64,000 bases of DNA from a virus. The stretch spans positions 311 through 64,310 of IMG/VR virus record IMGVR_UViG_3300026291_000001. One strand, written 5' to 3'. The notes under the pieces are model-generated. The model worked only from the letters and a program-made list of their open reading frames with translations, searched no databases and was not told where the DNA came from. Shown here one piece after another: positions 1-64,000 of this stretch; the first letter of the stretch is position 1, and every line of letters begins with the position of its first letter. The translations under genes were made by a program, and so were the position numbers.

Positions 1-15
1 TATCAGATTGTATTT

Positions 16-465
16 GTGTCTTTTATTAAACCAGGACCAGATGATGTTGCCCACTTATACGATACCCGCTTGCAGGCTACCAGTAGTGAGCAAGTCATCA
101 TGTACTATCCAAACTGGCGCGACCTCAGTTCCAGACCCAATTGTTTTATTCAGCTCGATAAAACCATTGAGATTATCCCCAAATCCGACACTGATGGATC
201 GTTGCACATCGAAGCGTACCGTTTGCCGTTGGCGGATATGGAAGATGACGACGAAGAGCCTGAAATCCAACGCACGCATCACCTGAACTTAATCGACTGG
301 GTGTTATACCGGGCCTACAGTATGCCGGATGTGGATATTCAAAATACCGCGAAGGCTGACTTCTTTGAAAAACGGTTCTCGCGGATATTCGGCAATGAAC
401 CCCATGCGACGACCCGAAGAGAACAACAAGCCGACCTTCCGCATCACAATAGGGCATGCTTCTGA
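16..465 (+). CDS. phage head-tail adaptor-like protein (probably 5'-truncated by the window edge)
   Basis: Frame is open from base 1. Motifs EAYRLPLADM and LIDWVLYRAYS-PD-D resemble podovirus adaptor proteins; it would follow the capsid genes if the genome is circular. Confidence 0.55.
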   Translation: MSFIKPGPDDVAHLYDTRLQATSSEQVIMYYPNWRDLSSRPNCFIQLDKTIEIIPKSDTDGSLHIEAYRLPLADMEDDDEEPEIQRTHHLNLIDWVLYRAYSMPDVDIQNTAKADFFEKRFSRIFGNEPHATTRREQQADLPHHNRACF

Positions 466-824
466 TGGTAATAAAAACCAGAACCCCGCAATATTTGCAG
501 TATGATGTGGTTGCCATATCAGGGGACAACTTAAATCTATCCGTGTCCTGGCGTGATGCTACAGGCGCTTATGTCGATTTTTCAGGCGCTACCGGAAAAG
601 GCCAGATTAAGCTGGATAAAACTGATACAGAGAGTGTCGAGGAATTTACCGTGGCACTGGGATCAACAGCAAACAATATTCAATTCAGTTTAACCGCTGC
701 GCAAGTGGCCGCGTTAACCGTTGGCAACAAGTATTATTACGATATTCAAATTACTGAAGGCGCTAACATTCGCACTTACATTATCGGTTATTTGAAAACG
801 ACTCAGGATGTTTCGCGGCCGTGA
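456..824 (+). CDS. virion structural protein, BppU-N-like Ig fold
   Basis: W-D..G..VDFSG.T.K.QIK and YYYDIQIT motifs; sits directly upstream of the fibre gene. Confidence 0.45.
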   Translation: MLLMVIKTRTPQYLQYDVVAISGDNLNLSVSWRDATGAYVDFSGATGKGQIKLDKTDTESVEEFTVALGSTANNIQFSLTAAQVAALTVGNKYYYDIQITEGANIRTYIIGYLKTTQDVSRP

Positions 825-2122
825 GTTTGGAAACTGTTGAAACAACAACGGAGTTAATCGTCGAGGTTACGGAAAACGTTATCGAGGTTGTGGATTTAGG
901 AATCCAAGGCCCGATTGGCCCACAGGGCGTGGCCGGGGAAATGGGCATTCCGGGGAGCGCTGTTTTCAAGGGCGATACGGGCTCTAGCGCTTATGAATTA
1001 GCTGTTACCAATGGTTTTATAGGTACTGAAGCAGCGTGGCTTTTATCTTTGGTTGGAGCCACAGGCGCGGCAGGCCATGACAGTACAATCCCAGGGCCAA
1101 CCGGACCCACTGGCCCCACTGGCGCGGCGGGAGAAAATAGCACCGTTGCCGGCCCAAAAGGCGAAAAGGGAGACACCGGAAATTCCGGATTAGACAGCAC
1201 TATTGCTGGACCAAGGGGCTACAAAGGCGATACCGGAAATTCCGGAGCAGACTCAACAATTCCAGGACCACCTGGCTCGGTTTGGCGTGACGGTTCTGGT
1301 GTTCCATCAAATAGTTTAGGCATAAATAATGATTACTACCTCGATGACGCAACCGGAAATGTTTATCTAAAAGCAGCCGGTAGTTATACTTTCGTTGCCA
1401 ATATTAAGGGCAATACGGGTAGCACCGGGGCAACCGGATCGGCAGGCGCAACAGGAAGCGCAGGTGCCAAAGGCGATACTGGCGATCAAGGCATTCAGGG
1501 TATCCAGGGTATCCAGGGTATAAAAGGCGATACCGGAAATACGGGCGCGACCGGGGCCACGGGAAGTATAGGTGCCACAGGTTCAGTAGGCTCAATAGGC
1601 GCCACGGGTAGTTCTGGCAGTTCAGGAACTAATGGAACTAATGGAACCAATGGAACCAACGGCAATGTCTGGCGCGATGGCACCGGCGTTCCTTCAAATG
1701 CTTTGGGCGTCAACGGCGACTACTACCTGGATGACGCTACCGGAAATATCTATTTAATGGCAACAGGTACTTACTCGCTGGTTGCCAACATCAAAGGCTC
1801 GCCTTTACCCCGCATAACAACACCTGCTTACTCAGCGAACCTTACCCTCAATTGGGCCGTTGCCGATGTTATTAAAGTTACCCTAACTGGTAACATCATC
1901 ATAACCAATTCGGGCGCTGTTGATGGTCAAAAGTGTATTTTAGAATTAATTCAAGACAGCACGGGCAGCCGAACCGTCGCCTTTACCAGCGAAACCCGGT
2001 TTGGGGGCAGTATTACCAGTTATACAGCTACTACCACCGCTAGTAAGTTAGATAGGTTGGGATTTATTTATAATGGCGTAGCTACAAAATATGATGTTTT
2101 GGCTGTTGCCAAGGGGTTTTAA
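821..2122 (+). CDS. collagen-like tail fibre protein
   Basis: Long Gly-X-Y runs and two copies of the module WRDG(S/T)GVPSN.LG.N.DYYLDDATGN.YL. Confidence 0.8.
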   Translation: MSLETVETTTELIVEVTENVIEVVDLGIQGPIGPQGVAGEMGIPGSAVFKGDTGSSAYELAVTNGFIGTEAAWLLSLVGATGAAGHDSTIPGPTGPTGPTGAAGENSTVAGPKGEKGDTGNSGLDSTIAGPRGYKGDTGNSGADSTIPGPPGSVWRDGSGVPSNSLGINNDYYLDDATGNVYLKAAGSYTFVANIKGNTGSTGATGSAGATGSAGAKGDTGDQGIQGIQGIQGIKGDTGNTGATGATGSIGATGSVGSIGATGSSGSSGTNGTNGTNGTNGNVWRDGTGVPSNALGVNGDYYLDDATGNIYLMATGTYSLVANIKGSPLPRITTPAYSANLTLNWAVADVIKVTLTGNIIITNSGAVDGQKCILELIQDSTGSRTVAFTSETRFGGSITSYTATTTASKLDRLGFIYNGVATKYDVLAVAKGF

Positions 2123-2128
2123 TTAATC

Positions 2129-6610: not shown

Positions 6611-6797
6611 AGCCATCATTCTTGTATCAAAGTTAACAGGCTATTGCCGTGATTTAACTTACGAATGGTCTTGGAAACGAAAATCGCCGGGTATTCATAA
6701 AGATGAGTACGATAAACTGCAACACACCATTGACGAAGGCGATCACCTGACCGATAAATTAACCGACCTGAAAAAAAATGACGAAGATCAAGAGTGA
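6594..6797 (+). CDS. hypothetical protein; its stop codon is supplied by the IS right end
   Basis: ATG at 6594; the TGA at 6795-6797 lies within the reverse-complemented IS end GGTAATTCAC. Confidence 0.5.
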   Translation: MPFLSRAIILVSKLTGYCRDLTYEWSWKRKSPGIHKDEYDKLQHTIDEGDHLTDKLTDLKKNDEDQE

Positions 6798-6808
6798 ATT
6801 ACCAAGTC

Positions 6809-7204
6809 CTATTGGACATGGCTTCCAGCTTCAACGGCACGAGCAAGAACAGAGGATTTACGTCCTTTGACTTGGCTAACAGTGCCTCGACTGGCAGTAC
6901 CGGCGATCCCCGCCGCTATCATACGTTGTGCTTCATTGCGGATGTTTTGTGCAGCATTTATGTCTCTATCGTGTATAGAGCCACACTTATCACACCGCCA
7001 TGAGCGGATTTCTAAAGGCATGTAGGATTGAACATGAAGACAGTTAGAGCAAGCTTTAGAACTCGGAAAGAAGCGATTGACTTCTATGTAGCCCTTTCCT
7101 GCTTGTTCAGCCTTATATTTGAGCATTCCTGTGAATGTTCCCCAACCCACGTCACCAATAGATTTTGCAAGACGGTGGTTTTTCATCATGCCTTTTACAT
7201 GCAA
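6809..7204 (-). pseudogene. tnpB: tnpB C-terminal fragment (zinc finger and RuvC-III)
   Basis: VKGMMKNHRLAKSIGDVGWGTF, FFPSSKACSNC, CDKCGSIHDRDINAAQNI. Confidence 0.9.
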
Positions 7205-7252
7205 CTATCGTTATTTATCAAACTATAGTACAATGTATCATACATAAATGAA

Positions 7253-7963
7253 TTGATAAGAAACGATACTATGGTTAGCTCAATAACACATATTGTTAAA
7301 GACGGTAACTTAACCTTACGCGAAGCAAGTTCAAAATATAACATACCTGTAAGTACATTAAAATCAAGGATGTTCAAAAATGAATTATCTTTGGAAGATG
7401 CTATTTTTAATAACATAACCAAGAGAGCAAGAATTATAAAAGGTGATAGGTTTGGTCATCTTGTTGCTACTGGCAATACCATCAGCAATCCTCACGGAAA
7501 TATGAGCTATGAAGTTGTATGCGACTGCGGAAATATAATTAATGTTTTAGGAATTGTGCTTAAAAGCGGAAAAAGCAAAACTGCTTGTAATATGGCCGGT
7601 TGTTCTTATAGCAGGTCAATTAGGCATGGCGTATCAAAGACTAAAGAACACAATGCTTGGATTAATATAAAACAGCGATGCTATAACAAAGATAACAGTG
7701 CGTATCCCTATTATGGCGGCATTGGTATAACAATGAGTGATGAGTTTTTAAACGATGTTTCAGCGTTTTTGGAGCATATAGGAAAAGCTCCATCACCTAC
7801 GCATAGCGTAGACAGAATAGATGGTAGCAAAGGATATGAAAGAGGTAATTTAAAATGGTCTACAAAGACCGAGCAAAGCAATAATCAAAGACGTGTAAAT
7901 GATCTAACGATGGAAATTAAAAGATTAAAGGATTTGCTAGATGTTAATGATATTGCTTATTGA
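7253..7963 (+). CDS. HNH-type homing endonuclease
   Basis: GDRFGHLV, YEVVCDCGN, KSGKSKTAC, WINIKQRCYN...YYGGIGI, HSVDRIDGSKGYERGNLKWST. Confidence 0.85.
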   Translation: MIRNDTMVSSITHIVKDGNLTLREASSKYNIPVSTLKSRMFKNELSLEDAIFNNITKRARIIKGDRFGHLVATGNTISNPHGNMSYEVVCDCGNIINVLGIVLKSGKSKTACNMAGCSYSRSIRHGVSKTKEHNAWINIKQRCYNKDNSAYPYYGGIGITMSDEFLNDVSAFLEHIGKAPSPTHSVDRIDGSKGYERGNLKWSTKTEQSNNQRRVNDLTMEIKRLKDLLDVNDIAY

Positions 7964-8048
7964 ACCAACGCGCACAACCGAACGCTTTATCCAGTTTTTC
8001 AACTTGCTTAGTGTCTGGATATATGCGTATTTTTGTAGCTTTTATCAT
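7944..8048 (-). pseudogene. tnpB: tnpB N-terminal HTH stub
   Basis: MIKATKIRIYPDTKQVEKLDKAFGCARWF is the typical IS605 OrfB N-terminus. Confidence 0.85.
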
Positions 8049-8121
8049 GGATTTAGTATAAATAACATTAATACTAAAGTCAAGATAAGTTTCATATCCC
8101 CAAACTAAGGGAAGGGGAATT

Positions 8122-9740: not shown

Positions 9741-9825
9741 AGCGTAGCGAATCTATCCTAAACTCAGCAGTCCCCAGAAGAGCCCATCGCAGTAAAGCGG
9801 AGTATTGCCGAGCCAAGCACAGGCT
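9741..9825 (+). ncRNA. 5-nt periodic (WNY-NN) guide-like tract 1, 17 units
   Basis: AGCGT AGCGA ATCTA TCCTA AACTC AGCAG TCCCC AGAAG AGCCC ATCGC AGTAA AGCGG AGTAT TGCCG AGCCA AGCAC AGGCT. Confidence 0.8.
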
Positions 9826-9872
9826 ACAAAATAGCGTTTAGTCCATTGCAAAGTGGGCTAATCGGTATTCGT

Positions 9873-9952
9873 AGTAAATCCTAGCAGAGTCTTGCCATGC
9901 CGAGCCTTGCGAACCGAATTTCAGCCAAGCAAATCGCTGCGAACCAAAGTCT
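9873..9952 (+). ncRNA. 5-nt periodic tract 2, 16 units
   Basis: AGTAA ATCCT AGCAG AGTCT TGCCA TGCCG AGCCT TGCGA ACCGA ATTTC AGCCA AGCAA ATCGC TGCGA ACCAA AGTCT, then TTTAACC. Confidence 0.8.
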
Positions 9953-9974
9953 TTTAACCAAAAAAGGTATCTAC

Positions 9975-10586
9975 ATGAAACAAATAAGAATAAAACTAAC
10001 CGGAACCTCGCCACTATTGCTATCCAGCGATAAACTAGCCGACCCCCTTAATCCGTTAACGATACGTCATAAAGAACTTACCAGTAAACGCAAGAAAACC
10101 GAGGATGACCATAGATTAATAGCCCGTTCCCAATGGCAAGGGTTGTTATATTGGGATGACAAACTAGGCGTAGTGATGCCGACGCAAAATATCCGTGCGG
10201 CGATGATAGGCGGAGGAAAATTAAACAAGCTGGGCATGGCGCTCAAACGCGGAACATTGATGATGGAAGATCAGGTCCCTGTAGAGTATGGTAAAAAATT
10301 AACGATTGAACAGTTATGGGATGGCGATTATAAAGATGTACGTTCTGTAGTAGTCTCTCAAGCACGGGTCATGGCTTACCGACCAAAATTCCTTAATTGG
10401 TCATTAACTGTCGACTTCCAGTATGATGAAAATGTATTGGATGAAAACCAGATTATGCAATCCCTGGAAAATGCCGGGATGTTTGTGGGTATTGGCGGTT
10501 ACAGACCGGAGAAAGGCGGTGTTTTCGGGAGGTTTAAAGCCGAGAAAGTTGTCGATAAAGTACAAGAAACAAAAATCGCAGCGTAG
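9975..10586 (+). CDS. stand-alone Cas7-like RAMP protein (Vipr-like effector)
   Basis: RAMP motifs: beta1 KQIRIKLTGTSPLLL, VVMPTQNIRAAM, and a C-terminal G-rich loop GIGGYRPEKGGVFGRF; 203 aa; no other class 1 cas genes nearby. Confidence 0.8.
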   Translation: MKQIRIKLTGTSPLLLSSDKLADPLNPLTIRHKELTSKRKKTEDDHRLIARSQWQGLLYWDDKLGVVMPTQNIRAAMIGGGKLNKLGMALKRGTLMMEDQVPVEYGKKLTIEQLWDGDYKDVRSVVVSQARVMAYRPKFLNWSLTVDFQYDENVLDENQIMQSLENAGMFVGIGGYRPEKGGVFGRFKAEKVVDKVQETKIAA

Positions 10587-10633
10587 TTAAGCTCAGCGCA
10601 TCGAAGCTGACATAGCGCATCAAAGCAAAGTTT
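10575..10633 (+). ncRNA. 5-nt periodic tract 3, 12 units (one 4-nt unit), overlapping the RAMP stop codon
   Basis: ATCGC AGCGT AGTTA AGCTC AGCGC ATCGA AGCTG ACAT AGCGC ATCAA AGCAA AGTTT, then TTAAT. Confidence 0.75.
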
Positions 10634-10640
10634 TTAATAA

Positions 10641-10700
10641 TTCGCAGCAGTGTAGTACCCAGCGAATCGGAGCAGATCGAAGTATTGCAGAGCACAGTTT
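10641..10700 (+). ncRNA. 5-nt periodic tract 4, 12 units
   Basis: TTCGC AGCAG TGTAG TACCC AGCGA ATCGG AGCAG ATCGA AGTAT TGCAG AGCAC AGTTT, then TTTAACC. Confidence 0.78.
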
Positions 10701-10721
10701 TTTAACCCAAGGAGCACACTT

Positions 10722-11195
10722 ATGAACCCCACAAACGAAACACCCAATGTAACCCTCGATAAACTGTATATTTTAGCCGCCGAGGAAGCTGCTACTAAAT
10801 ATAATTATGGAGAGGTTATCAGTAAAAACTGGTTGCTGGAAAAGTTCTCAATCGAATTTCCACAACGAGGAACAAAAAAAGACTTTGAAGATGCCAGCTT
10901 TGAGTTTTTACAAAACATGGAAGGCTTTAAAAGCATTATGCTGGAAAAGTTCCAGATGTTTTTATACCCGGTTAAAGGGGTCGGCTATGAGATTGTCTAC
11001 CCTAAATACCAGTCTGATTTAGCAATGATACGCTTAAGGAATACAGTCTCTACCGAGATTAAAAGAGCCATCAATGTACTGACGCATGTTAACGAACAAC
11101 ATTTAACCCAGGACGATATACGGAAAAGGGATGAACACCAGGGAAAGATTGCAGCTCTAGCCGCGTTCTCGAATAAGCGACTTTCTAATAGTTGA
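10722..11195 (+). CDS. accessory protein of the RAMP/periodic-repeat locus, function unknown
   Basis: 157 aa, AGGAG RBS, embedded between tracts 4 and 5. Confidence 0.7.
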   Translation: MNPTNETPNVTLDKLYILAAEEAATKYNYGEVISKNWLLEKFSIEFPQRGTKKDFEDASFEFLQNMEGFKSIMLEKFQMFLYPVKGVGYEIVYPKYQSDLAMIRLRNTVSTEIKRAINVLTHVNEQHLTQDDIRKRDEHQGKIAALAAFSNKRLSNS

Positions 11196-11201
11196 TTTCT
11201 T

Positions 11202-11271
11202 AGCAAAGCAAAGCCAATCGGAGCTGACTAAAGCTGATCGGAGCGGAACCTAGTTGAGCCAAGCACAGGCT
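11202..11271 (+). ncRNA. 5-nt periodic tract 5, 14 units
   Basis: AGCAA AGCAA AGCCA ATCGG AGCTG ACTAA AGCTG ATCGG AGCGG AACCT AGTTG AGCCA AGCAC AGGCT. Confidence 0.8.
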
Positions 11272-11317
11272 ATCAATAGCGTATTGTCCATTGCGAAGTG
11301 GGCAATGCGGTATTATT

Positions 11318-11382
11318 ATCGATGCAATGCCGATCAAAGCCGAGCGGATTAAAGCGATGCACAGTGGAGCAAATCTCATCAC
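11318..11382 (+). ncRNA. 5-nt periodic tract 6, 13 units, interrupted by an IS (last 2 units at 12627-12636)
   Basis: ATCGA TGCAA TGCCG ATCAA AGCCG AGCGG ATTAA AGCGA TGCAC AGTGG AGCAA ATCTC ATCAC | IS | AGCAA AGTTT TTAAC. Confidence 0.78.
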
Positions 11383-12626
11383 CGGTTTTGCTCCAGGTTG
11401 CCCCTTGCTTTAGCTGGGTGAGGAATGGAGTGCTCTTGATTTTTATGTCTTGACATAGTGTTAAAACTCTCTATACTTGAAGATATGAAATTAGTAATAA
11501 ATCTTAAACTTAACCCGGATGTACAGCAGCAACGCGCACTTCAAGATACTCTTGAACGGTGCAATGCAGCTTGTAATTGGCTGTCTGAGGTTGCCTATAA
11601 AGAAAATACTATTAAACAATTTGCCCTCCAAAAATTAACATACCGGCAATGCCGTGAAGATTATGGTTTGACAGCTCAGGCCGCAATCCGTTGTATTTCT
11701 AAAGTTGCCGATGCCTACAAGCTTAAGGATGCCGATAAGACCCAGAGAAATTTCAGGAAGTGGTCGGCACAACCTTACGACGACCGTATCTTCCGGTTCG
11801 GCAAAGGCGACACCGTAAATTTGTGGACTATTGCTGGAAGGCAAACTATCCCGTTTGAGTGCGGTGAATACCAACGTAAGCTTATCCCTTACCGCAAAGG
11901 CGAAGTTGACTTGATGTTTATCAAAGCCAAATGGTATGCGTCTTGTGTTATTGATGTTGACGATGCCGAACCGTTTGCGCCAACTGGCGGCGTGTTGGGT
12001 GTTGATTTGGGTATTGTCCAGATTGCTTCCGATTCTGATGGAGAACAGTTTTCCGGAGACAAAATTGAAGTCGTGCGTAAGAGATACCATACACTCAGGC
12101 AACAGCTTCAAAAGAAAGGCACTAAATCGGCAAAGCGGCATTTGAAGCGCATTGCCAAAAACGAAGCTAATTTTCGTAGCGAAACCAACCACGTAATTTC
12201 TAAAAAACTTGTTGAGAAGGCTAAAGGCACTTTTCGCAGCATCAACCTTGAAGAACTCAAAGGCATACGCGAAAGGATTACGGTTAGGAAAAATCAACGG
12301 GCTAAACAAAGTGGATGGGCGTTCTATCAACTTCAGCAATACATTGCCTATAAATCCAAGCTTTGTGGCGTGACGGTCAATTTTGTTGACCCTCGCTACA
12401 CAAGCCAAAGCTGTAGCGTTTGTGGTCATACCGCAAAAGCCAACCGCAAAAGCCAAGCTGTTTTTGTTTGCAAAAGTTGTAACCATAATCAAAATGCCGA
12501 CATCAATGCGGCAAAAAATATAAGTTTAAGGGCGGCTGTCAATCCGCCTATCGTAGCTACCGATGACCCACATGGATTGTGGCGAGGTAAGTTACAAGCT
12601 CCGTCATTCATGACGGTGTAGTTGAC
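11383..12626 (+). mobile_element. IS200/IS605-family (IS1341-like, tnpB only) element
   Basis: Left end CGGTTTTGCTCC...CCCCTTGCTTTAGCTGGG after TCAC; right end CAAGCTCCGTCATTCATGACGGTGTAGTTGAC; no target duplication. Confidence 0.8.
11485..12621 (+). CDS. tnpB: TnpB RNA-guided endonuclease
   Basis: RuvC D-E-D intact (GVDLG, LEELKGIR, NADINAAKNI) plus a CxxC...CxxC zinc finger. Confidence 0.93.
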   Translation: MKLVINLKLNPDVQQQRALQDTLERCNAACNWLSEVAYKENTIKQFALQKLTYRQCREDYGLTAQAAIRCISKVADAYKLKDADKTQRNFRKWSAQPYDDRIFRFGKGDTVNLWTIAGRQTIPFECGEYQRKLIPYRKGEVDLMFIKAKWYASCVIDVDDAEPFAPTGGVLGVDLGIVQIASDSDGEQFSGDKIEVVRKRYHTLRQQLQKKGTKSAKRHLKRIAKNEANFRSETNHVISKKLVEKAKGTFRSINLEELKGIRERITVRKNQRAKQSGWAFYQLQQYIAYKSKLCGVTVNFVDPRYTSQSCSVCGHTAKANRKSQAVFVCKSCNHNQNADINAAKNISLRAAVNPPIVATDDPHGLWRGKLQAPSFMTV

Positions 12627-18991: not shown

Positions 18992-19519
18992 ATGTTAACT
19001 CAAGAATATTTGAAAGAATGCGTAGATTATAATCGTGATACTGGTATTTTTATTTGGTTACATAGACCTGAATGTCATTTTAAAAATAAAAGGTCATTTA
19101 AACAACGTAATGCAGCACGTACTGGAAAACAGACAGGTTCATTTGATGGTAAAGGATATTATACGATCAGTATTGATAACAAATCCTATTTATCCCATAG
19201 ATTAGCTTGGCTTTATGAATATGGTAAGTTCCCTGAAAATGATATTGATCATGTAGATGGTAATAGATTAAATAACAGAATATCAAATTTACGAGAAGCT
19301 ACCAGATTACAAAATATGCAAAATCAAAGAGCACCTAGAGGGAATAATAAAACAACAAATTTACTTGGAGTGAGTCTAATACCAAGTTCTGGTAAATTTA
19401 GAGCACGTGTAACTGTTGCTGGAAAAACCCTATTTAGTGGTTGTTATAAAACAAAAGAAGAGGCTGCTATAGCCTATACAGACGCTAAAAGGAGATTTCA
19501 CCCATTCGGAAATTTATAA
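18992..19519 (+). CDS. HNH homing endonuclease with AP2 domain
   Basis: YLSHRLAWLYEYG, IDHVDGNRLNNRISNLREAT, GKFRARVTV. Confidence 0.9.
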   Translation: MLTQEYLKECVDYNRDTGIFIWLHRPECHFKNKRSFKQRNAARTGKQTGSFDGKGYYTISIDNKSYLSHRLAWLYEYGKFPENDIDHVDGNRLNNRISNLREATRLQNMQNQRAPRGNNKTTNLLGVSLIPSSGKFRARVTVAGKTLFSGCYKTKEEAAIAYTDAKRRFHPFGNL

Positions 19520-34311: not shown

Positions 34312-34467
34312 GACAACCCCCGAACATGAGTTATTGAACAAAAAAGGATGTGGCGACAAGGTGTTCAAGCTTGTATTCAGCAAGGGTAATTAGTCCAAGC
34401 CTAGCCACTTCTTAAGTATAGACGGAATAATGAAAAAGCAGAATGATCTGGTGCAGGCGGCCTATGG

Positions 34468-34724: not shown

Positions 34725-34760
34725 TTCAAGCAGCCTGCATACTGGCTTGGTAAGTATGAC
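34725..34760 (+). CRISPR. solitary Cas12m-type repeat
   Basis: AGCCTG CATACT GGCTTGGTA AGTATG AC (core 34732-34760), perfect 6-bp stem, same architecture as the repeats after cas12m. Confidence 0.8.
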
Positions 34761-35087: not shown

Positions 35088-35413
35088 ACGCCACTGCCTT
35101 CGACACGCACGAATTTGTTAAGAAATTAAAAGGCGTAGGCTTCAGTGAGGAACAAGCCGAAGTCTTAACCGAACTGCAAAAAACCACCGTAGTCAACACA
35201 CTGGAACAGGCTCGGCATGATTACGAGCTGGATAATCTGGCTACCAAAAGGGATTTAAAAGAATTTGAACTGACGGTTAGTCTGCAATTTAAACAAGTTG
35301 ATGTAAAGATAGCCGAAACTAAAGCCGAATTAATCCGTTGGGTGGTAGCTGTTGGTTTATTACAGACAGTGATTATTACCGGCTTGATTTTGCGCTTGAC
35401 GGGGAAAATTTGA
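35084..35413 (+). CDS. DUF1640/CCDC90-like membrane-anchored coiled-coil protein (paralog 1 of 3)
   Basis: AFDTHEFVKKLKGVGFSEEQAE...LATKRDL...C-terminal TM. Confidence 0.85.
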   Translation: MNATAFDTHEFVKKLKGVGFSEEQAEVLTELQKTTVVNTLEQARHDYELDNLATKRDLKEFELTVSLQFKQVDVKIAETKAELIRWVVAVGLLQTVIITGLILRLTGKI

Positions 35414-37308
35414 TGATCATAGTCCGGAACTACGGCCTTTTACCTCCCGATAATTGGGGAGACGATTGTCACGAACAGTTATTCATGATGAGCAAGTTCT
35501 GGAATCAGCTTGTTGAAATAGACCACGCCGACCGTGAGCGTTATCGCGCTATTCTTACCGAAGACCCGGAAGTAGCAACGCTGGAAGTCCGTCTTTTTGA
35601 AACATCCGAACAACTGTTAAGTTTATCGACCGAGCGTAAAAAACTCAGATCATCCGCGCGTTCTAAAAATGTGGATGACGGCCTGCTTGTGGAGCGGATT
35701 AAAATCCTGCGCGAGACTGAGAAATCAATCAAGGCTCAACTAAAACTAAGTAGGGCAGCGAAGCGGGAAGCGTCAAAACCTGCCTTGGATGCGCTTAATG
35801 AAGCCCATAAAGCCACCGTTAAACAGGCTCGGAAAACATGCGGCTTATTCTGGAGTAATTACAATGCCGTCCTTGAATCCTACCAGGCAGCTCGTACCAA
35901 GGCCATGAAAATAGGCGTCGATCTGCGCTTTCGAAGGTTTGACGGGTCCGGTCGCTTTGTCAATCAGGTTCAGGGTGGTATCGATGTCTCGGAGTTCATG
36001 CACGGTACTTATAGTATGGCAGGTATTGATCCCGAACTATTTCCGGTCCTTGGACGTAGCGGGAAAGACCGGCCACGGTTGCATATAACAGCATTTACAG
36101 GCCATGACGCAGAGGGTAAGCACTTTCGGCGCACCTTAAGCTTTCCTGTTATCCTGCACCGTCCGATACCAGAAGAGGTTAACGGGTATCCGGTACGCAT
36201 AAAAACGCTGACCGTATCAAAGAAACGAGTCAGCGCCGGACACTTCGACTGGAGCTTGACATCCTCCACCAACTTAAAAAGCGTGGATTCCCAAGTACAG
36301 CCTTTCATGCCCGAAAGGGATGACTCTGAAAGTCATCTTACTTCACCCCAGCCCGGAGTTAATCCTGATGAGGTGAAAATACGCAGCAACAGCGTACCCA
36401 ACAAATTAAGTATAGTACAAAACGCTTTTATTTATAGGTTGACCATTACCGCGACGACTGATGGTGAAGCGATAGCTAATGCAAGCCCGGTAGCGGCAGG
36501 CGTTAACCTGGGCTGGAAGCGGGAAGGCCAAGCCTTACGGGTTGCCACGATTTACGATAGCAACGGCGATAGCGAACATTTTAGACTTCCGGCCACGTGG
36601 ACGACTGCCATGGATTACGCGGAATCGCTACGCGGAGATATTGATGAAGTTACCAACTTAATGTTTACGGCGTTACTGGCGCAAAATATTGAATCGGAAT
36701 TGCTGACTAAAGCCAAGCGCCCACACCCTGCCTTAATTAACCGCTTTGCACGTGAAGCTGAAATACGGCCCATGCTACAGGCACATATTATTACCAAGGA
36801 ACTGGTTATTGAATCTATAGCTATGCTACCGGCGCTCAATGCGCTACCGTGTTATCTAGCGTGGTCACGTTATAAAGAGCGCGAGTTTAGCGGTTTAAGA
36901 ACCCGGCTACTTGGGCAACGCAAAGACTTATACCGGAACATTGCGGCTACATTAGCCAGTCGTTATTCAGTTATTGCAATCGACAATGCCGACTATGCGA
37001 AAATGGCCCGGTTGGAATCACGGGGCGGCGAGGAAAATGACTTGTTAAAGATTGCCCGGACGAACCGGTTCAGGGTATCTCCTTCTGAGCTGCGTTTGTC
37101 GATTGAGCAGGCGATAGCCAAGAGCGGCGGCGTAGTCGAACGGGTCGGACAGCAAAACGAATGCGCGAATTGTGGCAGGCCCGATAAACAAGATACAATA
37201 ATCTGGAAATGTGGGCATTGCGGGGCGGTGTATGACCAAGATGAAAACATGGCGAAATTGTTGATTCGTGGGTATCTTCCTGAGCAGTCAAAGGGTGCGA
37301 CAGGGTAG
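35413..37308 (+). CDS. cas12m: Cas12m (type V-M / V-U1)-like effector, predicted nuclease-dead
   Basis: 631 aa; YGLLPPDNW, long REC coiled coil, FWSNYNAVL...LRFRRFDGSGRFVNQVQGG, RuvC GVNLGW / IAIDNAD / YDQDENMA, zinc finger CANCG...CGHCG; repeats start directly after the stop codon. Confidence 0.85.
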   Translation: MIIVRNYGLLPPDNWGDDCHEQLFMMSKFWNQLVEIDHADRERYRAILTEDPEVATLEVRLFETSEQLLSLSTERKKLRSSARSKNVDDGLLVERIKILRETEKSIKAQLKLSRAAKREASKPALDALNEAHKATVKQARKTCGLFWSNYNAVLESYQAARTKAMKIGVDLRFRRFDGSGRFVNQVQGGIDVSEFMHGTYSMAGIDPELFPVLGRSGKDRPRLHITAFTGHDAEGKHFRRTLSFPVILHRPIPEEVNGYPVRIKTLTVSKKRVSAGHFDWSLTSSTNLKSVDSQVQPFMPERDDSESHLTSPQPGVNPDEVKIRSNSVPNKLSIVQNAFIYRLTITATTDGEAIANASPVAAGVNLGWKREGQALRVATIYDSNGDSEHFRLPATWTTAMDYAESLRGDIDEVTNLMFTALLAQNIESELLTKAKRPHPALINRFAREAEIRPMLQAHIITKELVIESIAMLPALNALPCYLAWSRYKEREFSGLRTRLLGQRKDLYRNIAATLASRYSVIAIDNADYAKMARLESRGGEENDLLKIARTNRFRVSPSELRLSIEQAIAKSGGVVERVGQQNECANCGRPDKQDTIIWKCGHCGAVYDQDENMAKLLIRGYLPEQSKGATG

Positions 37309-37311: not shown

Positions 37312-37413
37312 TAAAAATAGCCTGCACAGTGGCTTGGTGACTGTGACGGCAAGTAATATAACTTACCTTATGGATGGTAATAACAGCCTGCACAGTGGCA
37401 TGGTAATTGTGAC
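37312..37413 (+). CRISPR. mini CRISPR array 1 (2 repeats, 1 spacer)
   Basis: Cores 37319-37347 AGCCTGCACAGTGGCTTGGTGACTGTGAC and 37385-37413 AGCCTGCACAGTGGCATGGTAATTGTGAC; 37 nt between cores. Confidence 0.88.
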
Positions 37414-44703: not shown

Positions 44704-45798
44704 ATGAACATTCAAATTAAAACCTTAAAAGTTAGAATCCGCGATAAACATGCAGATGTTTTGAATCGCATGTCTTTTGAAGTCAATCAAGTCTGGAATG
44801 CAGCCAATGAAACGTCTGCTGAGTTCGCTTGGGTTCCAGTGCCTGAAGTTGGCTATATGAATATGCAGACATCCGGTTTTGACTTAATGAAGGAGCTGAA
44901 AGGAATCCGCAAAGAACGAAGTATGATTATCAGTGCTAGAACTGTTCAGGAAGTAATAGCCGTCCACGCCAAGACCCGCAAACAATTCAAGAAAGACAAA
45001 CTAAGGTGGAGGTCTTCAGGTGGAGCAAGACGCGCTTTAGGATGGGTTCCTTTCAAGTCTGGATCGGCTTGTTGGATAAATGGTCAAGTCAGGTTCTGCG
45101 GTATCTATTTCAAGTGTTGGGATAGCTACGGCTTAAGCCAATACGATTTTAGAAGCGGCTGCTTCTCTGAAGATAGTCGAGGCCGCTGGTATTTCAATAT
45201 CGTAGTGCATGTCGAGGAAGAAGTCAGGCTATCAGAAGGTGGTCAGATAGGCATTGATTTAGGACTTAAGACAACGGCAACCTGTAGCAATGGCGTAGTA
45301 TTGGAACGTAAACAGTTTTATCGTAATTTAGAAGAAAAACTAGGCAAGGCACAGCGAGCTAATAAGAAGAAACTGGTTAAAACGATACATGCAAAAATTA
45401 AGAACCAACGGCTTGATGCGAATCATAAATTTAGCCGTAAAATAGTAAATGAAAACAGTTTAATAGTAGTTGGCAATGTAAGCAGTTCAGGTCTGGCAAA
45501 AACCAAGATGGCTAAGTCCGTTCTTGATGCAGGCTGGTTCATGCTAAAAACGATGATTGATTATAAATCGAAAGCGATGCAATCAGCGTTCATAGAAGTC
45601 AATGAAGCATACACTACTCAAGCGTGTTCGTGCTGTGGCTGTATAAGCTCCAGTAGTCCGAAAGGTAGACGCGATCTTGATGTAAGAGAATGGACTTGTG
45701 CCGAGTGTGGCACCGAGCATGATAGAGATATTAATGCGGCTAAGAATATTCTCTCTCTGGGACATCAGAGACTAGCAGTAGGAATCCTCTCCCTTTAG
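44704..45798 (+). CDS. tnpB: TnpB with apparently rearranged RuvC-II
   Basis: GIDLGLK, IVVGNV (no canonical E), VNEAYTTQACSCC, HDRDINAAKNI; right end GGAATCCTCTCCCTTTAGAGAGAGGAGGATGTCAA at 45781-45815. Confidence 0.9.
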   Translation: MNIQIKTLKVRIRDKHADVLNRMSFEVNQVWNAANETSAEFAWVPVPEVGYMNMQTSGFDLMKELKGIRKERSMIISARTVQEVIAVHAKTRKQFKKDKLRWRSSGGARRALGWVPFKSGSACWINGQVRFCGIYFKCWDSYGLSQYDFRSGCFSEDSRGRWYFNIVVHVEEEVRLSEGGQIGIDLGLKTTATCSNGVVLERKQFYRNLEEKLGKAQRANKKKLVKTIHAKIKNQRLDANHKFSRKIVNENSLIVVGNVSSSGLAKTKMAKSVLDAGWFMLKTMIDYKSKAMQSAFIEVNEAYTTQACSCCGCISSSSPKGRRDLDVREWTCAECGTEHDRDINAAKNILSLGHQRLAVGILSL

Positions 45799-45920
45799 AG
45801 AGAGGAGGATGTCAATTGGCAACAATGGGAAGCTAAGGCCGGTTCAAAAAATCACAGAAAAATGGACCCGGCTTTTTGGGAACTGTTTAAAATAAAAAAT
45901 CTACATTAGGGGCATATATC

Positions 45921-48170: not shown

Positions 48171-48263
48171 ATGATCCAGGCACAAGTAAAACTTAGGCTC
48201 AACGTCATTCAGTCATCATTACTGGATGGATGGTTATTTATGCTCACCGGAGATTTATCATGA
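48171..48263 (+). pseudogene. tnpB: tnpB N-terminal stub (30 aa)
   Basis: MIQAQVKLRLNVIQSSLLDGWLFMLTG resembles the N-terminus of a TnpB subfamily; an IS605-type right end is present at 48863-48897. Confidence 0.6.
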
Positions 48264-48856
48264 CGGAATTAGAAACAGCTTGGCTTGCTGGCATTCTTGA
48301 AGGCGAAGGATGTTTTAGCTGGTATGCATCAACACGGGAGTATGGTAAACCCACAGTTAAGCTTGCTATGAGCGACTTCGATATTGTTGAACGTGCAGCT
48401 AAAATAATGGTGGCAAAAACCGTAAGGCCAGTAAAGACGGATAGGCCGGACAGATTGGAAAGTCTTAATTATAAACCCATGTTTAAATGCTGTGTTTCTA
48501 CAACAAAGGCAGCGGTATTAATGGAAAAAATTCTTCCTTATATGGGAGAGCGTAGAAGCGCGAAAATTAAAGAATTGCTTGATTTGTGGGTAAAAAGGCC
48601 AGGATATAAGGCAACAAGTTTGGCTATACGATCTGGAAATGTAGCTAGATGGGATAAACAAAGTTTGCCTGTTAGCACACTTAATATCATTGAAGAACTC
48701 TCTATAAGTGGTTTGTCACAGTATAAAATTGCTGACAAACTGAATCAGGAAAGCGTACCTACCAGAACAGGTGTTGGTAAGTGGTCTCAAACACAAGTAG
48801 GCCGAACACTACGTTTAGGACAGCCCTCGAATGGAATTATGCAAAATGTCGCGTAA
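48260..48856 (+). CDS. LAGLIDADG homing endonuclease with C-terminal HTH
   Basis: AWLAGILEGEGCF, VKLAMSDFDIVER, ILPYMGERRSAKI; C-terminal IADKLNQESVPTRTG.GKWS.TQV. Confidence 0.85.
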   Translation: MTELETAWLAGILEGEGCFSWYASTREYGKPTVKLAMSDFDIVERAAKIMVAKTVRPVKTDRPDRLESLNYKPMFKCCVSTTKAAVLMEKILPYMGERRSAKIKELLDLWVKRPGYKATSLAIRSGNVARWDKQSLPVSTLNIIEELSISGLSQYKIADKLNQESVPTRTGVGKWSQTQVGRTLRLGQPSNGIMQNVA

Positions 48857-53944: not shown

Positions 53945-53946
53945 AT

Positions 53947-54136: not shown

Positions 54137-54673
54137 ATGAGTATTCAAACGATGATCGATGACGTTCTAAAGAAAGAAGGCGGATATACTGATAATCCAT
54201 TAGATCATGGAAAATGCACTAATATGGGCATCACCCTATCCACACTGGACGAGTTTACCGGAAAAAAAAATGGTAAGGACAACATCAAGGCACTAAGCCA
54301 GGCTGATGCCTGGCATATTTACTACAATAATTACTACATCAAGCCTGCTATCTATTCACTGCCGTCAGCGCTACAACCGCTTATCTTCGATATGGCCGTC
54401 AACCAAGGCCCTCACAGCGCCATTAAACTGCTGCAACTTGAATTAAAAACCCTGGGCTATATGTACCGCGCTGCCGATGGTATTAACGGACCAATCACTA
54501 TCGCCGCTTCAAAAAAAGCTATCAATGATCTAGGCGCTAAGTTTATTAATAGCGTGGTCAACCGGCGTATTGATTTTTATCATGCCATTGTCGAAGCCAA
54601 GCCCAACCAATCGATGTTTTTAAAAGGCTGGATCGCCAGGGCGGAAACTTTTAGAGAGCATGAAACTGTGTAA
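54137..54673 (+). CDS. endolysin, glycoside hydrolase family 108 with peptidoglycan-binding domain
   Basis: LKKEGGYTDNPLDHGKCTNMGIT, FDMAVNQGP, DGINGPIT, FLKGWIAR. Confidence 0.9.
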   Translation: MSIQTMIDDVLKKEGGYTDNPLDHGKCTNMGITLSTLDEFTGKKNGKDNIKALSQADAWHIYYNNYYIKPAIYSLPSALQPLIFDMAVNQGPHSAIKLLQLELKTLGYMYRAADGINGPITIAASKKAINDLGAKFINSVVNRRIDFYHAIVEAKPNQSMFLKGWIARAETFREHETV

Positions 54674-55924
54674 ACAATCACCTACCTGAAGGAAGGTGCT
54701 TTTATGGTAACTAAAATCGTTCCACATTAGGGCGGCTTACCGCACCCCTTGACGGACTGAAAAGCCTGTCAAACTTAGCAATATTCGACGCCGCATTGAC
54801 GTCGCTGTGGGATAAGTGACCACAGTTCTTACAGGAAAATTTATGTTTTACACGAGTACCGATAGCATCACAGACCGAGCAGGATTTGGAGGTATAAGCG
54901 GGATTAATGTATTTAATCTCGATACCGACCGCTTGTGCTTTGTAGGCAACAAAATCTTGAAGCTGTCTAAACGACCAGCGATGCAAGCGAGAGCGAACGC
55001 GCCTACCGGCTTTGATGTTATCGCGAATGTTGGTCAAGTCCTCAAGCCTGATTTCACTGGCATTGTAGGCAATGGCTTCTTGAACAATCGCTTTGGATAT
55101 TTCGTGGTTTACGTGTTTTACATGGGCTACTTCTTTGCCGGAGATTTTCTTCAGCAATTGCTTTGCCGAATTAGAACCGTTGCGTTGAAGTCTCTTGCGG
55201 TGCGCCAAGAACTTGTCTCGTTTATGGCGCAGTTCGCCACCACCAAACACCTTTCCGGTGCTGGTTGCAGCGATATTATTTTCACCAACATCAACACCCA
55301 TAGAGCCGTTTCCGGTACTGGGTGTAGCGTCGGGTATGTCAATAACCAGATTGAAGTACCACTGGCCTTTTCGTTTAAGCAATTCTGCTTCTTTGGCAAT
55401 ACCAGAGTTAAGCAGGTTAGCTTGATGCTTACCCAATATGTAATTGACTGCTATGCGGCCATCCAGCGTGAACAGGGAAATAACTTCTTTCTTGAACGAA
55501 TAGGTACGCTTATCAAAGTGCACGGAAGACGTTTGTTTAAAGCTGATAACCGGCCAGTCTTCTTTTTTGAGCTTGGGTTCATTAGCTACCAAGGACTTGT
55601 AAGACTGGGCAACATTAGCAATGGCATTACAGACCATTTGGGAGCCAAGAGCAGGCACTTGTTCCCTGACAGAATAGTAGCAAAGATGGTGCAAAGCTAC
55701 CCGATTCGAGCATTTGACGTGTGCGGAAAAACCAACCGCAATGTTACAAGCGTTAGAAAATTCAACTTGCAAAGCGTCGAGTTTAACGCTTTGTTCGATG
55801 GTTGGATCAAGCTTGATAGACACTGTTTTTTTCATATAGGAAACTATAGATTAGAAACAGCAAAAGATCAAGAGCACTCCTTACCTCCCCGCCCTAAAGA
55901 GACGGGGTATCACGGAGCTTTCCG
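54670..55924 (-). mobile_element. IS200/IS605-family element (tnpB only)
   Basis: Minus-strand left end CGGAAAGCTCCGTGATACCCCGTCTCTTTAGGGCGGGG after TCAT; right end AAAGCACCTTCCTTCAGGTAGGTGATTGTTTAC. Confidence 0.85.
54711..55835 (-). CDS. tnpB: TnpB RNA-guided endonuclease
   Basis: GVDVGE, RLEDLTNIR, HSDVNAASNI (D-E-D intact), CSVC...CKNC. Confidence 0.93.
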   Translation of the reverse strand: MKKTVSIKLDPTIEQSVKLDALQVEFSNACNIAVGFSAHVKCSNRVALHHLCYYSVREQVPALGSQMVCNAIANVAQSYKSLVANEPKLKKEDWPVISFKQTSSVHFDKRTYSFKKEVISLFTLDGRIAVNYILGKHQANLLNSGIAKEAELLKRKGQWYFNLVIDIPDATPSTGNGSMGVDVGENNIAATSTGKVFGGGELRHKRDKFLAHRKRLQRNGSNSAKQLLKKISGKEVAHVKHVNHEISKAIVQEAIAYNASEIRLEDLTNIRDNIKAGRRVRSRLHRWSFRQLQDFVAYKAQAVGIEIKYINPAYTSKSCSVCDAIGTRVKHKFSCKNCGHLSHSDVNAASNIAKFDRLFSPSRGAVSRPNVERF

Positions 55925-56128: not shown

Positions 56129-56299
56129 GTCACAATTATGAAGCCATTGTGCAGGCTGTTGCTGACTCGAATATGCATCTAAGTACGTCACAATTACGAG
56201 GTCACTGTACAGGCTCTGACTTAAAAGTTAAATTTACCAAGCCAATTTACAGGCATTACGAGTGTCACATTTTCGATGCCAATGTACAGGCTTGAGTTT
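56129..56299 (-). CRISPR. delocalised mini array 2 (4 degenerate Cas12m-type repeats)
   Basis: 29-nt cores at 56129-56157, 56187-56215, 56227-56255, 56264-56292; inter-core gaps 29, 11 and 8 nt; all keep the 6-bp stem on the minus strand. Confidence 0.8.
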
Positions 56300-56715: not shown

Positions 56716-56718
56716 CGC

Positions 56719-58994: not shown

Positions 58995-59080
58995 GTCACA
59001 ATTATAAAGCCACTGTGCAGGCAAGATTAAATTATATGGCTACCGTCACAATTACAAAGCCATCGCGTAGGCAGATTAGA
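58995..59080 (-). CRISPR. delocalised mini array 3 (2 Cas12m-type repeats)
   Basis: Cores 58995-59023 and 59045-59073, 21 nt apart; minus strand TGCCTGCACAGTGGCTTTATAATTGTGAC and TGCCTACGCGATGGCTTTGTAATTGTGAC. Confidence 0.8.
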
Positions 59081-59480: not shown

Positions 59481-59748
59481 GGTGCTCCTTAAGCCAGTCT
59501 TTCAAAACGTTATTCATGCGCGTTTGCCAGCCCCGGCCGGTAGCTCGAAAAGCCGTCAGTACATCCGAATCAAAACGCACCGTGGTTGATACCTTGATGG
59601 GAGCTTTCTGCTTGCCACGGCCTTCTTTCAAGCCCAGCAAAGTAGTTTGTAACGATTCAGGCAAAGCCGAAAACGGCATAGCATTTTTAAAATCTTCTTC
59701 TGTCCACTCAGGATTATCATCATCAATCATTTCTGGATTTCGTTTCAT
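59461..59748 (-). CDS. brnA: BrnA antitoxin (no adjacent brnT)
   Basis: DDDNPEWTEEDF...RGKQKAPIKVSTTVRFDSDVLTAFRATGRGWQTRMN. Confidence 0.9.
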   Translation of the reverse strand: MKRNPEMIDDDNPEWTEEDFKNAMPFSALPESLQTTLLGLKEGRGKQKAPIKVSTTVRFDSDVLTAFRATGRGWQTRMNNVLKDWLKEHHDRLHE

Positions 59749-59931
59749 ACTGTTTTCTCTCTCTTTTGTTAATTGTAGTAACAAAAAAGAATTTAAGCAA
59801 GAAAAAAACCACCATGATTCATTTGCCATTTGAAAAAAAAAGCGAATTATGGTATACGTATGGCTCTCTAATCGTCACCGCGACGACACAGCGGATAAAC
59901 CCCTACGGGATTATATGAGATTTAAAAAACC

Positions 59932-60888: not shown

Positions 60889-61127
60889 ACAGCCACAACC
60901 TGAGGGCATGGGCTTTATGGTAACCACGAAGGGTCCCACAGTAGGGAAGCTTACTGTACCCCTTAACGATCTGAAAAGTTCGTTAACCCTGCGTTATTTA
61001 GTTTTATCGATACCTGAAAGGTTCGAAAGGATGCCGACGCCGGGGAAGCGCACCATGTATAAATTATAGACAATGTTAATACAAGATCAAGTACACCATT
61101 TCTCCCCCACCTGAAGGAAGGAAACTG
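60885..61127 (-). mobile_element. miniature non-coding IS200/IS605 derivative (about 240 bp)
   Basis: Minus-strand right end GTTACCATAAAGCCCATGCCCTCAGGTTGTGGCTGTTTAC and left-end hairpin CCTTCCTTCAGGTGGGGGAG both resemble the ends of the 54670-55924 element; no ORF inside. Confidence 0.65.
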
Positions 61128-61216
61128 ATTGAAACTGAAGTAAAGAACACACTGCCCCAGGGCAGTAAGCCGCCGCGTCGTGATGACGCTGCTAATCCCG
61201 TAGAAGGAAACCTATT

Positions 61217-62509: not shown

Positions 62510-62619
62510 CATATTATAGCCTATAATAATTATGTCGGACAGGCCTATGCATGGCTTTCCACTCGCCTATTTCGGGTGGATTACGACACCAATTATTAAT
62601 TACAAAATAGGTGTAGGCT

Positions 62620-63435
62620 ATGAAATTCGTGGATCGTTGTGGACAGCGCTATGGCAAGCTGTTGGTTATCAGTAAATCAGTTAATGACTCTAACAAAACT
62701 TATTGGAATTGCCAGTGCGACTGCGGAAATACTACCGTGGTTTATGCAGGAAAACTCAGTTCAGGACTTACCAAATCCTGTGGTTGTTTAAGGCATGAAG
62801 CTGGTGAACGAAGAGTTATTGATAGAGTAGGTCAGCGTTTTAGCCGTTTGGTTGTTTTGGAACGTGTTGAAAGTGATAAAAAGGTAATGTGGCGTTGCTT
62901 GTGTGATTGTGGAAATGAATCGATTGTTGATAGTGCTAATTTAGCAGATGGACACAGCCGTTCATGTGGATGTTTAGTTAAAGATAAGGCCCGTGAGAAT
63001 TTCACGACGCATGGGTTAACTAATATTCCTGAACATAAAGCATGGATGAGTATGAATAATCGTTGCAACAACGAAAACGATAGGCAATACGTAGATTATG
63101 GTGGTCGCGGTATTCATATATGCGAACGCTGGCTTAGTTTTGAAAACTTTCTTGAGGATATGGGTAACAAGCCATCACCTCAGCACAGTATTGACCGGAT
63201 CGATAACGAGCTTGGCTACTCTAAGGACAATTGCCGTTGGGCAACCACTAAAGAGCAAGCTAATAATCGCAGGTCAAATCGTTTACTGATTATTGATGGC
63301 ATCACTAAAACCCTAAGCGAGTGTGCTGATGAATACCAAATATCCTATGGTGTTATTCAAAATAGATTGAAAAAAGGCTGGTCTGATGAGGACGCAGTGA
63401 AACTAAAACATTTTCAAAAGAGATCACAAACATGA
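62620..63435 (+). CDS. HNH-type homing endonuclease
   Basis: Two GQR(Y/F)G.L.V...W.C.CDCGN...SCGCL modules, W.SMNNRC...YGGRGI.ICERW.SFENFLEDMG, HSIDRIDNELGY...NCRWAT. Confidence 0.88.
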   Translation: MKFVDRCGQRYGKLLVISKSVNDSNKTYWNCQCDCGNTTVVYAGKLSSGLTKSCGCLRHEAGERRVIDRVGQRFSRLVVLERVESDKKVMWRCLCDCGNESIVDSANLADGHSRSCGCLVKDKARENFTTHGLTNIPEHKAWMSMNNRCNNENDRQYVDYGGRGIHICERWLSFENFLEDMGNKPSPQHSIDRIDNELGYSKDNCRWATTKEQANNRRSNRLLIIDGITKTLSECADEYQISYGVIQNRLKKGWSDEDAVKLKHFQKRSQT

Positions 63436-63914
63436 GCTTAATAACCAAAAAACAAACCGGCGAGAACCGTAACTGGTGCGCCCCTTACGGCAATGCCTTG
63501 TCATTGCTCTATACCTTCACAACAGACGCATCCGGTATCTTTATCCAAAGCGATACGCCGACTGCGCCACAAATTGGCGATGTCATCATTCTGGGCAGAC
63601 TGGAAGCAGGCTTGCTTATCTTTGATGCCCAGGTCATCGTATCTGACGCCTTTACCGCGTTAACCACGGCGAATATCGGCTTTCAGTATTGTGACGGTAT
63701 CGATGATGCCAACGCGCCGCAGGACAATGCTTATTTTGCTTCAGCCTTAGCCACTTCGGCAACTGGCGTGAGTCGAAAGACGGGTGTTAAAGCCCCTATT
63801 CGACTCAAGAAAGATGCTTACTTGATCTTGACGAATGCGGGAGCCGCTCATGCCGCTGCCGGTCAGATAGATGTAGTAGTTAACGGTATCTGGGAAGGTT
63901 TTCCTAATCTGTAA
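63432..63914 (+). CDS. capsid-associated structural (decoration-like) protein
   Basis: 160-aa beta-rich protein directly downstream of the capsid/HNH genes. Confidence 0.55.
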   Translation: MSLITKKQTGENRNWCAPYGNALSLLYTFTTDASGIFIQSDTPTAPQIGDVIILGRLEAGLLIFDAQVIVSDAFTALTTANIGFQYCDGIDDANAPQDNAYFASALATSATGVSRKTGVKAPIRLKKDAYLILTNAGAAHAAAGQIDVVVNGIWEGFPNL

Positions 63915-64000
63915 GCGATCAAACTAAAGGGGATGTAAAAATCCCCTTTCTTTAACCCCAGGAGATTCACAAATGTTAGTCCCTATACTATATTGCGGCA

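Follow-up and report, generated by a model that had tools for sequence, protein, structure and literature searches.

Three classes of RNA-guided effector share the soil phage genome described here, which was analysed as a window of 64,000 nucleotides (nt; positions 311–64310 of the 64,913-nt virus record IMGVR_UViG_3300026291_000001; CheckV completeness 100%). They are a VIPR locus, built around the RAMP protein Vipr and its periodic guide RNAs (vrRNAs); a Cas12m with a dead-type RuvC domain and dispersed repeats; and TnpB proteins of IS605-type insertion sequences (ISs). Their coexistence probably arose when two silencing modules were gained independently of each other and parasitic insertions came afterwards. 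The modules are absent from all relatives surveyed, and IS605-type DNA is found inside both the VIPR locus and the cas12m gene. The VIPR locus belongs to a clade whose guides carry AGY in place of the canonical GGY triplet, and one of its guides has a predicted target in satellite-like elements of methane-oxidizing bacteria.

The VIPR locus and its guide code

Vipr aligns with the Vipr of Escherichia phage SUSP1 over 190 amino acids (aa) (PDB 36pp; 141 bits, E 3e-40) and is a stand-alone RAMP with a G-loop. Six tracts of 5-nt period lie around its gene, each unit combining a constant triplet with a variable dinucleotide, NN. AGC, ATC, AGT or TGC begins 63 of the 78 units; GGY begins none. A crude periodicity score by itself did not exceed shuffles for these tracts, which were established by their position and by the identical motif flanking homologous vipr genes. 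A hairpin tail is found on vrRNA1, on vrRNA5 and in a homologous locus (L001), and the remaining four vrRNAs end in a short U-rich stretch. The accessory neighbour of vipr is conserved, with a homolog beside vipr in G002. In its lone RAMP with one accessory gene, and in the several surrounding RNAs of 5-nt period, some with a structured tail, the system resembles the type II VIPR of SUSP1. It is also phage-borne, with a 1-nt skip on the codon wobble position and a satellite as predicted target. Unlike SUSP1 VIPR, it uses AGY (also ATC/TGC) and in no unit GGY as the constant triplet; Ser and Gly occupy the positions of H17 and D177, and a TnpB element interrupts one of the guides.

The residues involved have assigned functions. 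In SUSP1 Vipr, H17 and D177 read G1 and R138 reads G2 (bioRxiv 2026.04.26.720927). Instead of the canonical type II signature, a GGY motif with H17/D177, the locus combines AGY with S17/G175. Its tracts fit the looser YNNNG consensus of the discovery paper and it is therefore still a VIPR, though a non-canonical one. Positions 17 and 175/177 change jointly across 120 Vipr homologs. Among 77 loci, S, A or V at position 17 with G175 accompanies AGY tracts, and H or N at position 17 with D or E at position 175 accompanies GGY tracts; the pairing holds at every scorable locus of the AGY clade. The AGY loci form one clade (support 100/99) nested among GGY loci, so the association goes back to one evolutionary event and is not a case of repeated covariation. 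YNNNG-type variants are described in the discovery paper, which also includes GGY to AGY among the substitutions tested and reports that perturbation of GGY abolishes silencing by SUSP1 VIPR. Between them, the VIPR papers (bioRxiv 10.64898/2026.04.26.720920,.720927 and 2026.10.15.759431) list YNNNG, NNNGG, NNNNG, GAC, CAC, WGT and TGH variants, and other non-canonical triplets appear in a later survey. VIPRs without GGY are therefore already known. No description of AGY as a natural class, or of its link to these residues, was found in the main texts of the cited VIPR papers.

A target can be predicted for vrRNA5. Decoded with a one-base skip, it matches 7 of 251 Methylomonadaceae genomes at 20 of 22 positions (reversed control, 1) and none of the 226 searched in the wider class. 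When the next unit is added, the match becomes 22/24 in two of the Methylomonadaceae genomes and 21/24 in five. The decode works at a skip of 1 only, skips of 0 and 2 yielding nothing, and the skipped base coincides with the codon wobble. All seven matches fall in one gene family, which encodes a CHC2 zinc finger (primase-type). The surrounding genes comprise an integrase, small open reading frames (ORFs), CHC2 and Toprim/DUF3987, and the gene content suggests that such elements are phage satellites. Chance would give 0.018 matches per guide, or about 0.09 for five of them, without frame and context being taken into account. The wobble phase and the mobile-element context agree with published VIPR behaviour. 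No targets were found for vrRNA1, 2, 4 and 6 in 200–220 Methylomonadaceae genomes, and exact 18-base decodes of vrRNA1 and vrRNA2 had no match in IMG/VR. Against 17 phage records (16 capsid relatives and G002), the guides performed no better than reversed controls. Within the phage itself, neither the vrRNAs (skips 0–3) nor the Cas12m spacers have a target. Two candidates were rejected: a 16-base decode of vrRNA5 with seven matches, which had no convincing extension, and an 18/24 match of vrRNA6 in L001, which lay at chance level.

Cas12m and its dispersed repeats

The cas12m ORF matches PDB 23vw with 137 bits, and its top four fold matches are all Cas12m proteins. Its RuvC residues, N365, D524 and D610, form a triad common to the homolog clade. 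Cas12m proteins with an N-D-D triad bind without cutting, and their systems typically lack adaptation genes (PMC11013384). No cas1 is present in the genome; cas2 and cas4 were not searched for separately. The five nearest homologs, with 57–66% identity, reside in prophage, P1-like, satellite and plasmid-like DNA. Nine cores of the Cas12m repeat occur, on both strands, at four loci separated by as much as 24 kb; shuffles at the same stringency predict none. Behind a homolog of 62% identity, this repeat is arranged in a regular array of 10 copies, and three homologs (L004, L106 and L107) have regular arrays of it. Here no regular CRISPR array lies behind cas12m: two repeats are found there and seven elsewhere. 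The protein is Cas12m and, on comparison with its homologs, the locus is a derived form.

The repeat is predicted to form a stem and a pseudoknot resembling those of Cas12m2. Overall, 95.6% of cells are paired, a value reached in none of 500 shuffles (slid controls, 28–45%). The pseudoknot helix is 100% paired and shows compensatory changes at five of its six pairs, the most diverged copies included; the shape of the RNA is therefore under selection. The system shares with type V-M Cas12m (MmCas12m/Cas12m2, GoCas12m and N-D-D orthologs; PMC10442227, PMC11013384) its fold, a characterized dead N-D-D RuvC, a stem-plus-pseudoknot repeat ending in GAC and the lack of adaptation genes. It differs in being phage-borne, in having nine diverged repeats instead of a regular array, and in carrying a 61-residue IS-derived insertion between WED and RuvC.

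Several spacers are self-complementary, and where the gaps measure 8–11 nt there is hardly room for a guide. The repeat upstream of the cas12m operon resembles the standalone repeats reported as regulatory elements for Cas12a, which lie ahead of cas12 genes (bioRxiv 2023.03.03.530964). Spacers of the homologs' arrays do not match this phage, and the Cas12m repeat was not found in those genomes searched among the 251 Methylomonadaceae. The operon is headed by a 57-aa ORF (34914–35087) that by eye looks like a remnant of a GIY-YIG N-terminus. Four short minus-strand genes (34472, 41295, 41513 and 59242) have a common 53-nt coding motif at their 3' ends, and two of them adjoin Cas12m repeat loci. 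One Cas12m homolog (L003, 11830–12240) has an array that switches its repeat along the way: four copies of another sequence pass gradually into three copies of the Cas12m-type repeat.

IS605-type elements and their nesting

Three full-length TnpBs (364–378 aa) carry OrfB_IS605 and TNB domains and are 25–33% identical to each other. The D-E-D triad of RuvC is intact in TnpB1 and TnpB3, and TnpB2 has Gly for Glu, as in the rearranged RIIr group (PMC10691335). No Y1 TnpA was found in the genome with the Y1_Tnp profile, which detected its positive control. In their domains and terminal hairpins, in integrating behind a tetranucleotide that is not duplicated and in lacking a TnpA in cis, the elements resemble orphan IS200/IS605 TnpB elements with IS608-like ends, including the RIIr clade. 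They depart from these in number, with four in one 64-kb phage and none in 31 relatives, in two insertions that fall within other RNA-guided systems, and in the one shell that holds an HNH gene. Just upstream of tnpB2, 36 nt (44493–44528) exactly match the 3' end of a gene in a Methylococcales genome (G289); this stretch may be the core of an attachment site or DNA captured from a host.

Because IS605 elements integrate on the 3' side of a tetranucleotide and leave no trace on excision (PMC3201880), empty sites can be reconstructed. In silico removal of elements 1 and 3 gives clean empty sites, and in the case of element 1 the excision restores the 5-nt phase and the U-rich end of vrRNA6. The 14 nt 3' of element 1 recur only at the end of vrRNA3, where TCAA replaces TCAC. 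These 14 nt are the end of a vrRNA, and the guide of TnpB1 is thus a vrRNA end. The one-base difference between TCAA and TCAC may protect the phage's own vrRNA3 from TnpB1.

A further insertion lies within cas12m, where 61 residues are absent from eight homologs. The mini-element that encodes them is bounded by a repeated pentanucleotide, and its terminus is like the right ends of TnpB2 and of TnpB2's host homologs. Its removal restores the homologous strand of Cas12m, and the reading frame is open with the insert in place. In the predicted structure, the insert is a disordered loop (pLDDT 25–35) and the remainder scores 70–90. An intron or ribozyme was considered and rejected, there being no Rfam match and the terminus being that of an IS605 right end. 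The end motif has no exact match in IMG/VR. As read from these boundaries, the nesting is one-way: IS605-type DNA has entered VIPR and Cas12m.

Five ORFs encode endonucleases, four clearly and the fifth by PHROG label alone; one of the five sits in the shell of a broken IS. The preliminary description, made from the DNA alone, had listed a RAMP/periodic-repeat system, a dead Cas12m with distributed guides, three full-length TnpBs and at least five free-standing homing endonucleases. The first entry is borne out by the Vipr homologous to that of SUSP1 and its six 5-nt tracts. The second stands for the N-D-D Cas12m and the nine repeats at four loci, and the word 'guides' is unproven because no target was found. 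The TnpB count is right, with the corrections that TnpB2 has Gly at the RuvC-II Glu and that a broken fourth tnpB exists. The endonuclease count also holds, and 'free-standing' fails for the ORF within the IS shell; the ORF at 48230 has a PHROG label only.

Table 1. RNA-guided systems, IS605-type elements and endonuclease genes in the window.
Feature	Position	Strand	Remarks
vrRNA1	9741..9870	+	AGY/NN tract and hairpin tail of about 50 nt (-18 kcal/mol), tail common to vrRNA5
vrRNA2	9873..9957	+	AGY/NN tract, short U-rich end
vipr (RAMP, 203 aa)	9975..10586	+	true start 9975; S17 and G175 instead of SUSP1 H17 and D177; equivalent of R138 retained
vrRNA3	10580..10637	+	short, one phase slip; last 14 nt identical to TnpB1 guide
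vrRNA4	10641..10707	+	periodic AGY/NN tract
vap-like accessory gene (157 aa)	10722..11195	+	PHROG 5926; 57% homolog adjoins vipr in G002
vrRNA5 and hairpin tail	11197..11317	+	predicted target: CHC2 zinc-finger gene of satellite-like elements
vrRNA6, 5' part	11318..11382	+	interrupted by TnpB1 element; final units at 12627-12640
IS605-type element 1 (tnpB1 11485-12621, D-E-D)	11383..12626	+	inserted after TCAC within vrRNA6; ends TTGAC
Solitary Cas12m repeat	34732..34760	+	upstream of cas12m operon; same layout in homolog L105
cas12m (631 aa, RuvC N-D-D)	35413..37308	+	assigned by sequence, fold and motif
IS605-type mini-element (183 nt)	36256..36438	-	in frame within cas12m (61 extra residues); TnpB2-type right end
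Two Cas12m repeats	37319..37413	+	immediately 3' of cas12m
Four degenerate Cas12m repeats	56129..56292	-	core-to-core gaps 8, 11 and 29 nt
Two Cas12m repeats	58995..59073	-	21-nt gap
tnpB2 (364 aa, RuvC-II Glu to Gly)	44704..45815	+	right end present; left-end hairpin not found
IS605-type element 3 (tnpB3 54711-55835, D-E-D)	54670..55924	-	inserted after TCAT
Broken fourth IS605 element	6794..8121	-	tnpB N- and C-terminal remnants flank antisense HNH gene; left boundary approximate
HNH endonuclease	7253..7963	+	phrog_374; within broken IS shell
HNH-AP2 endonuclease	18992..19519	+	one of the four clear endonuclease ORFs
GIY-YIG/NUMOD3/AP2 endonuclease	33325..34383	-	called start may be 34311
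Putative endonuclease	48230..48856	+	PHROG 5046 label only; LAGLIDADG-like motif by eye
HNH endonuclease	62620..63435	+	after capsid gene; 50% homolog at same site in G350 and G376

Lineage, integrity and competing explanations

The backbone is that of the F116/LKA5-like temperate podoviruses, with a capsid 49–51% identical, a P22-type portal and a polyvalent protein, and genome length and gene order fit the group (relatives 58–66 kb). The gene order is the same in the relative G348, which has no RNA-guided module. Relatives were collected by capsid (31 phages, 18 of them at least 90% complete), and Vipr, the TnpB/Cas12 zinc finger and Cas12m occur in none of them; the same Vipr and TNB queries do detect this genome. 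The modules are therefore a lineage-specific accretion, and the three-class combination is a property of this lineage. The survey of related phages for co-occurrence that the preliminary description proposed came back empty. Vipr homologs reside in unrelated phages, and Cas12m was not found on one viral contig with an AGY Vipr (57% complete). The phage, of a temperate group, probably infects a methane-oxidizing gammaproteobacterium of the Methylomonadaceae. The clues are a capsid 75% identical to a protein of a Methylobacter metagenome-assembled genome, a Vipr homolog that carries the name Methylobacter, IS and antitoxin DNA matching Methylococcales genomes (a comparison made without a control order) and the predicted vrRNA5 target. 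Spacer matching yielded no host assignment.

Among other features of the window, the accessory region holds a gene for a type IV pilin (4859–5380), which may change the host pilus receptor. The polyvalent protein (24072–33407; 3111 aa) has PBECR3 nuclease-like, ART-PolyVal and LPD38 domains. AT-rich tandem repeats of 24 and 22 nt between the terminase and portal genes (51415–51685) are iteron- or operator-like. A HicAB-like pair (21567–22153), a BrnA antitoxin (59461–59829) and DUF29 genes (40597–41025) represent toxin–antitoxin-type morons, and a replication initiator (57057–58346) has an HNH domain fused mid-protein, the sixth HNH/endonuclease domain of the genome. Rfam families, tRNA and tmRNA genes are absent from the window.

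The following sequence of events is proposed. A temperate phage would have acquired, at different accessory sites, two RNA-guided modules that are unrelated to each other and do not cut. If expressed, Vipr would coat its AGY/NN guide RNAs, bind DNA through the 1-nt-skip code and silence competing elements, vrRNA5 being directed at the genes for replication in an integrated satellite. With H17 and D177 lost, the pocket for the first base would have been relaxed from G to A/T. Cas12m would bind repeat-derived RNAs of the four loci and form a roadblock, dependent on a protospacer-adjacent motif, against rival elements; the upstream and short-gap repeats would more likely be regulatory or decoy units. 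Selfish IS605/TnpB elements and homing endonucleases would have colonized the genome later, with the TnpBs guarding their own insertion sites and depending on a host TnpA for mobility. The link between classes would be parasitic nesting, not cooperation or domain swapping. The load is unusual for the group. The intense inter-element conflict suggested earlier is supported for VIPR, by its one predicted satellite target, and by the insertions into both systems, but not for Cas12m. The TnpBs and homing endonucleases are not weapons but selfish passengers.

Several observations weigh against independent accretion of two working silencing modules. Just one of five vrRNAs searched has a target, and its seven matches belong to a single gene family. 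Guides of other AGY loci show no clear enrichment on these satellites (8 versus 3). The association of AGY with the Vipr residues stems from a single event, and a distant E17/G175 clade (L032–L038) retains GGY guides; Glu17 may there stand in for Asp177 in reading G1. No spacer of Cas12m matched anything in the comparisons made, the phage itself included. The 61-residue insertion and the degenerate arrays mean, moreover, that Cas12m may be decaying. Cas12m would then no longer be a weapon, being either crippled by the insertion or a regulator of phage genes, and its repeats would be binding sites or decoys, not guides. This is a serious possibility, though less likely than not. The missing targets, the 8–29-nt gaps with little or no spacer, the self-complementary spacers, the tidy arrays of close homologs and the known regulatory role of upstream standalone repeats all point towards it. 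Against it, the frame is retained through an insertion that models as a disordered loop, compensatory changes maintain the pseudoknot in all copies down to the most diverged, and no self target was found in the phage.

A coupling of the classes, in a snapshot of module exchange, is improbable. VIPR would in that case have recruited TnpB1, whose vrRNA-derived guide would cut rival VIPR loci or empty alleles. The position of the element within vrRNA6, the 14 nt common to vrRNA3 and the TCAA/TCAC difference speak for it, and Cas12 has been proposed to have arisen by way of tnpB inserting next to guide arrays (PMC10691335). Any IS605 element uses its right flank as guide, hence recruitment is unnecessary; the insertion truncates vrRNA6, and tnpB occupies this position in no other Vipr locus among the gene tables examined. 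The exchange between TnpB, Cas12 and Cas7-like modules envisaged in the preliminary description is not supported at the level of proteins. Collinearity with the homologs is preserved in Vipr and in Cas12m, the TnpBs are no closer to each other than stated above, and self-BLAST finds no sequence common to vrRNA tails, Cas12m repeats and TnpB ends. As judged from sequence, no protein is a hybrid of the three classes and exchange is limited to insertion. That the contig joins several elements or strains into a chimera is very improbable indeed. The termini of the record overlap over 348 nt with 88.5% identity, which closes the genome to a circle of 64,565 nt. A contig from Logan (SRR5450631; 64,501 nt) has another start point, spans the circle junction and is identical to window positions 1–54,999 and 61,934–64,000. 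A k141 contig from ENA (64,706 nt, equal to 64,565 + 141) is identical to positions 53,432–64,000. These products of two other assemblers jointly cover the whole window at 100% identity with zero differences. Chimerism is unlikely because they agree with it base for base; the coexistence of the three classes on one molecule is upheld, and the contig is very probably real. All assemblies probably share one read set from one sample, which also counts against the accretion reading; they therefore rule out assembler error better than sample-level artefacts. The first 271 nt of the record, outside the window, come from a variant with 40 differences, the sole foreign piece in the record, so that a related strain was present in the sample.

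All parts belong to known families; the novelty lies in the AGY clade, for which a switch of specificity and a satellite target are predicted, in the dispersal of the Cas12m repeats and in the two nested insertions. The bare coexistence of the three classes is a one-genome curiosity, not a conserved system. A broader proposal is that the AGY clade is naturally orthogonal to GGY VIPR, H17S and D177G switching the code so that GGY guides are neither loaded nor act as decoys, and that it silences methanotroph satellites. TnpB with a vrRNA-derived guide and dead Cas12m on genome-wide mini-guides would complete a layered RNA-guided control in one phage. This proposal is offered tentatively and is, as a whole, rather doubtful. 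From the residue comparison, the reading of the repeat by Vipr can be put as a directly testable, residue-level rule; the locus is a candidate second VIPR, usable beside that of SUSP1 without cross-talk. The predicted vrRNA5 target would extend the conflict between VIPR and satellites to methanotrophs in concrete form. A TnpB inside a guide RNA corresponds to the first step proposed for the transition from TnpB to Cas12, here with an array that is not CRISPR.

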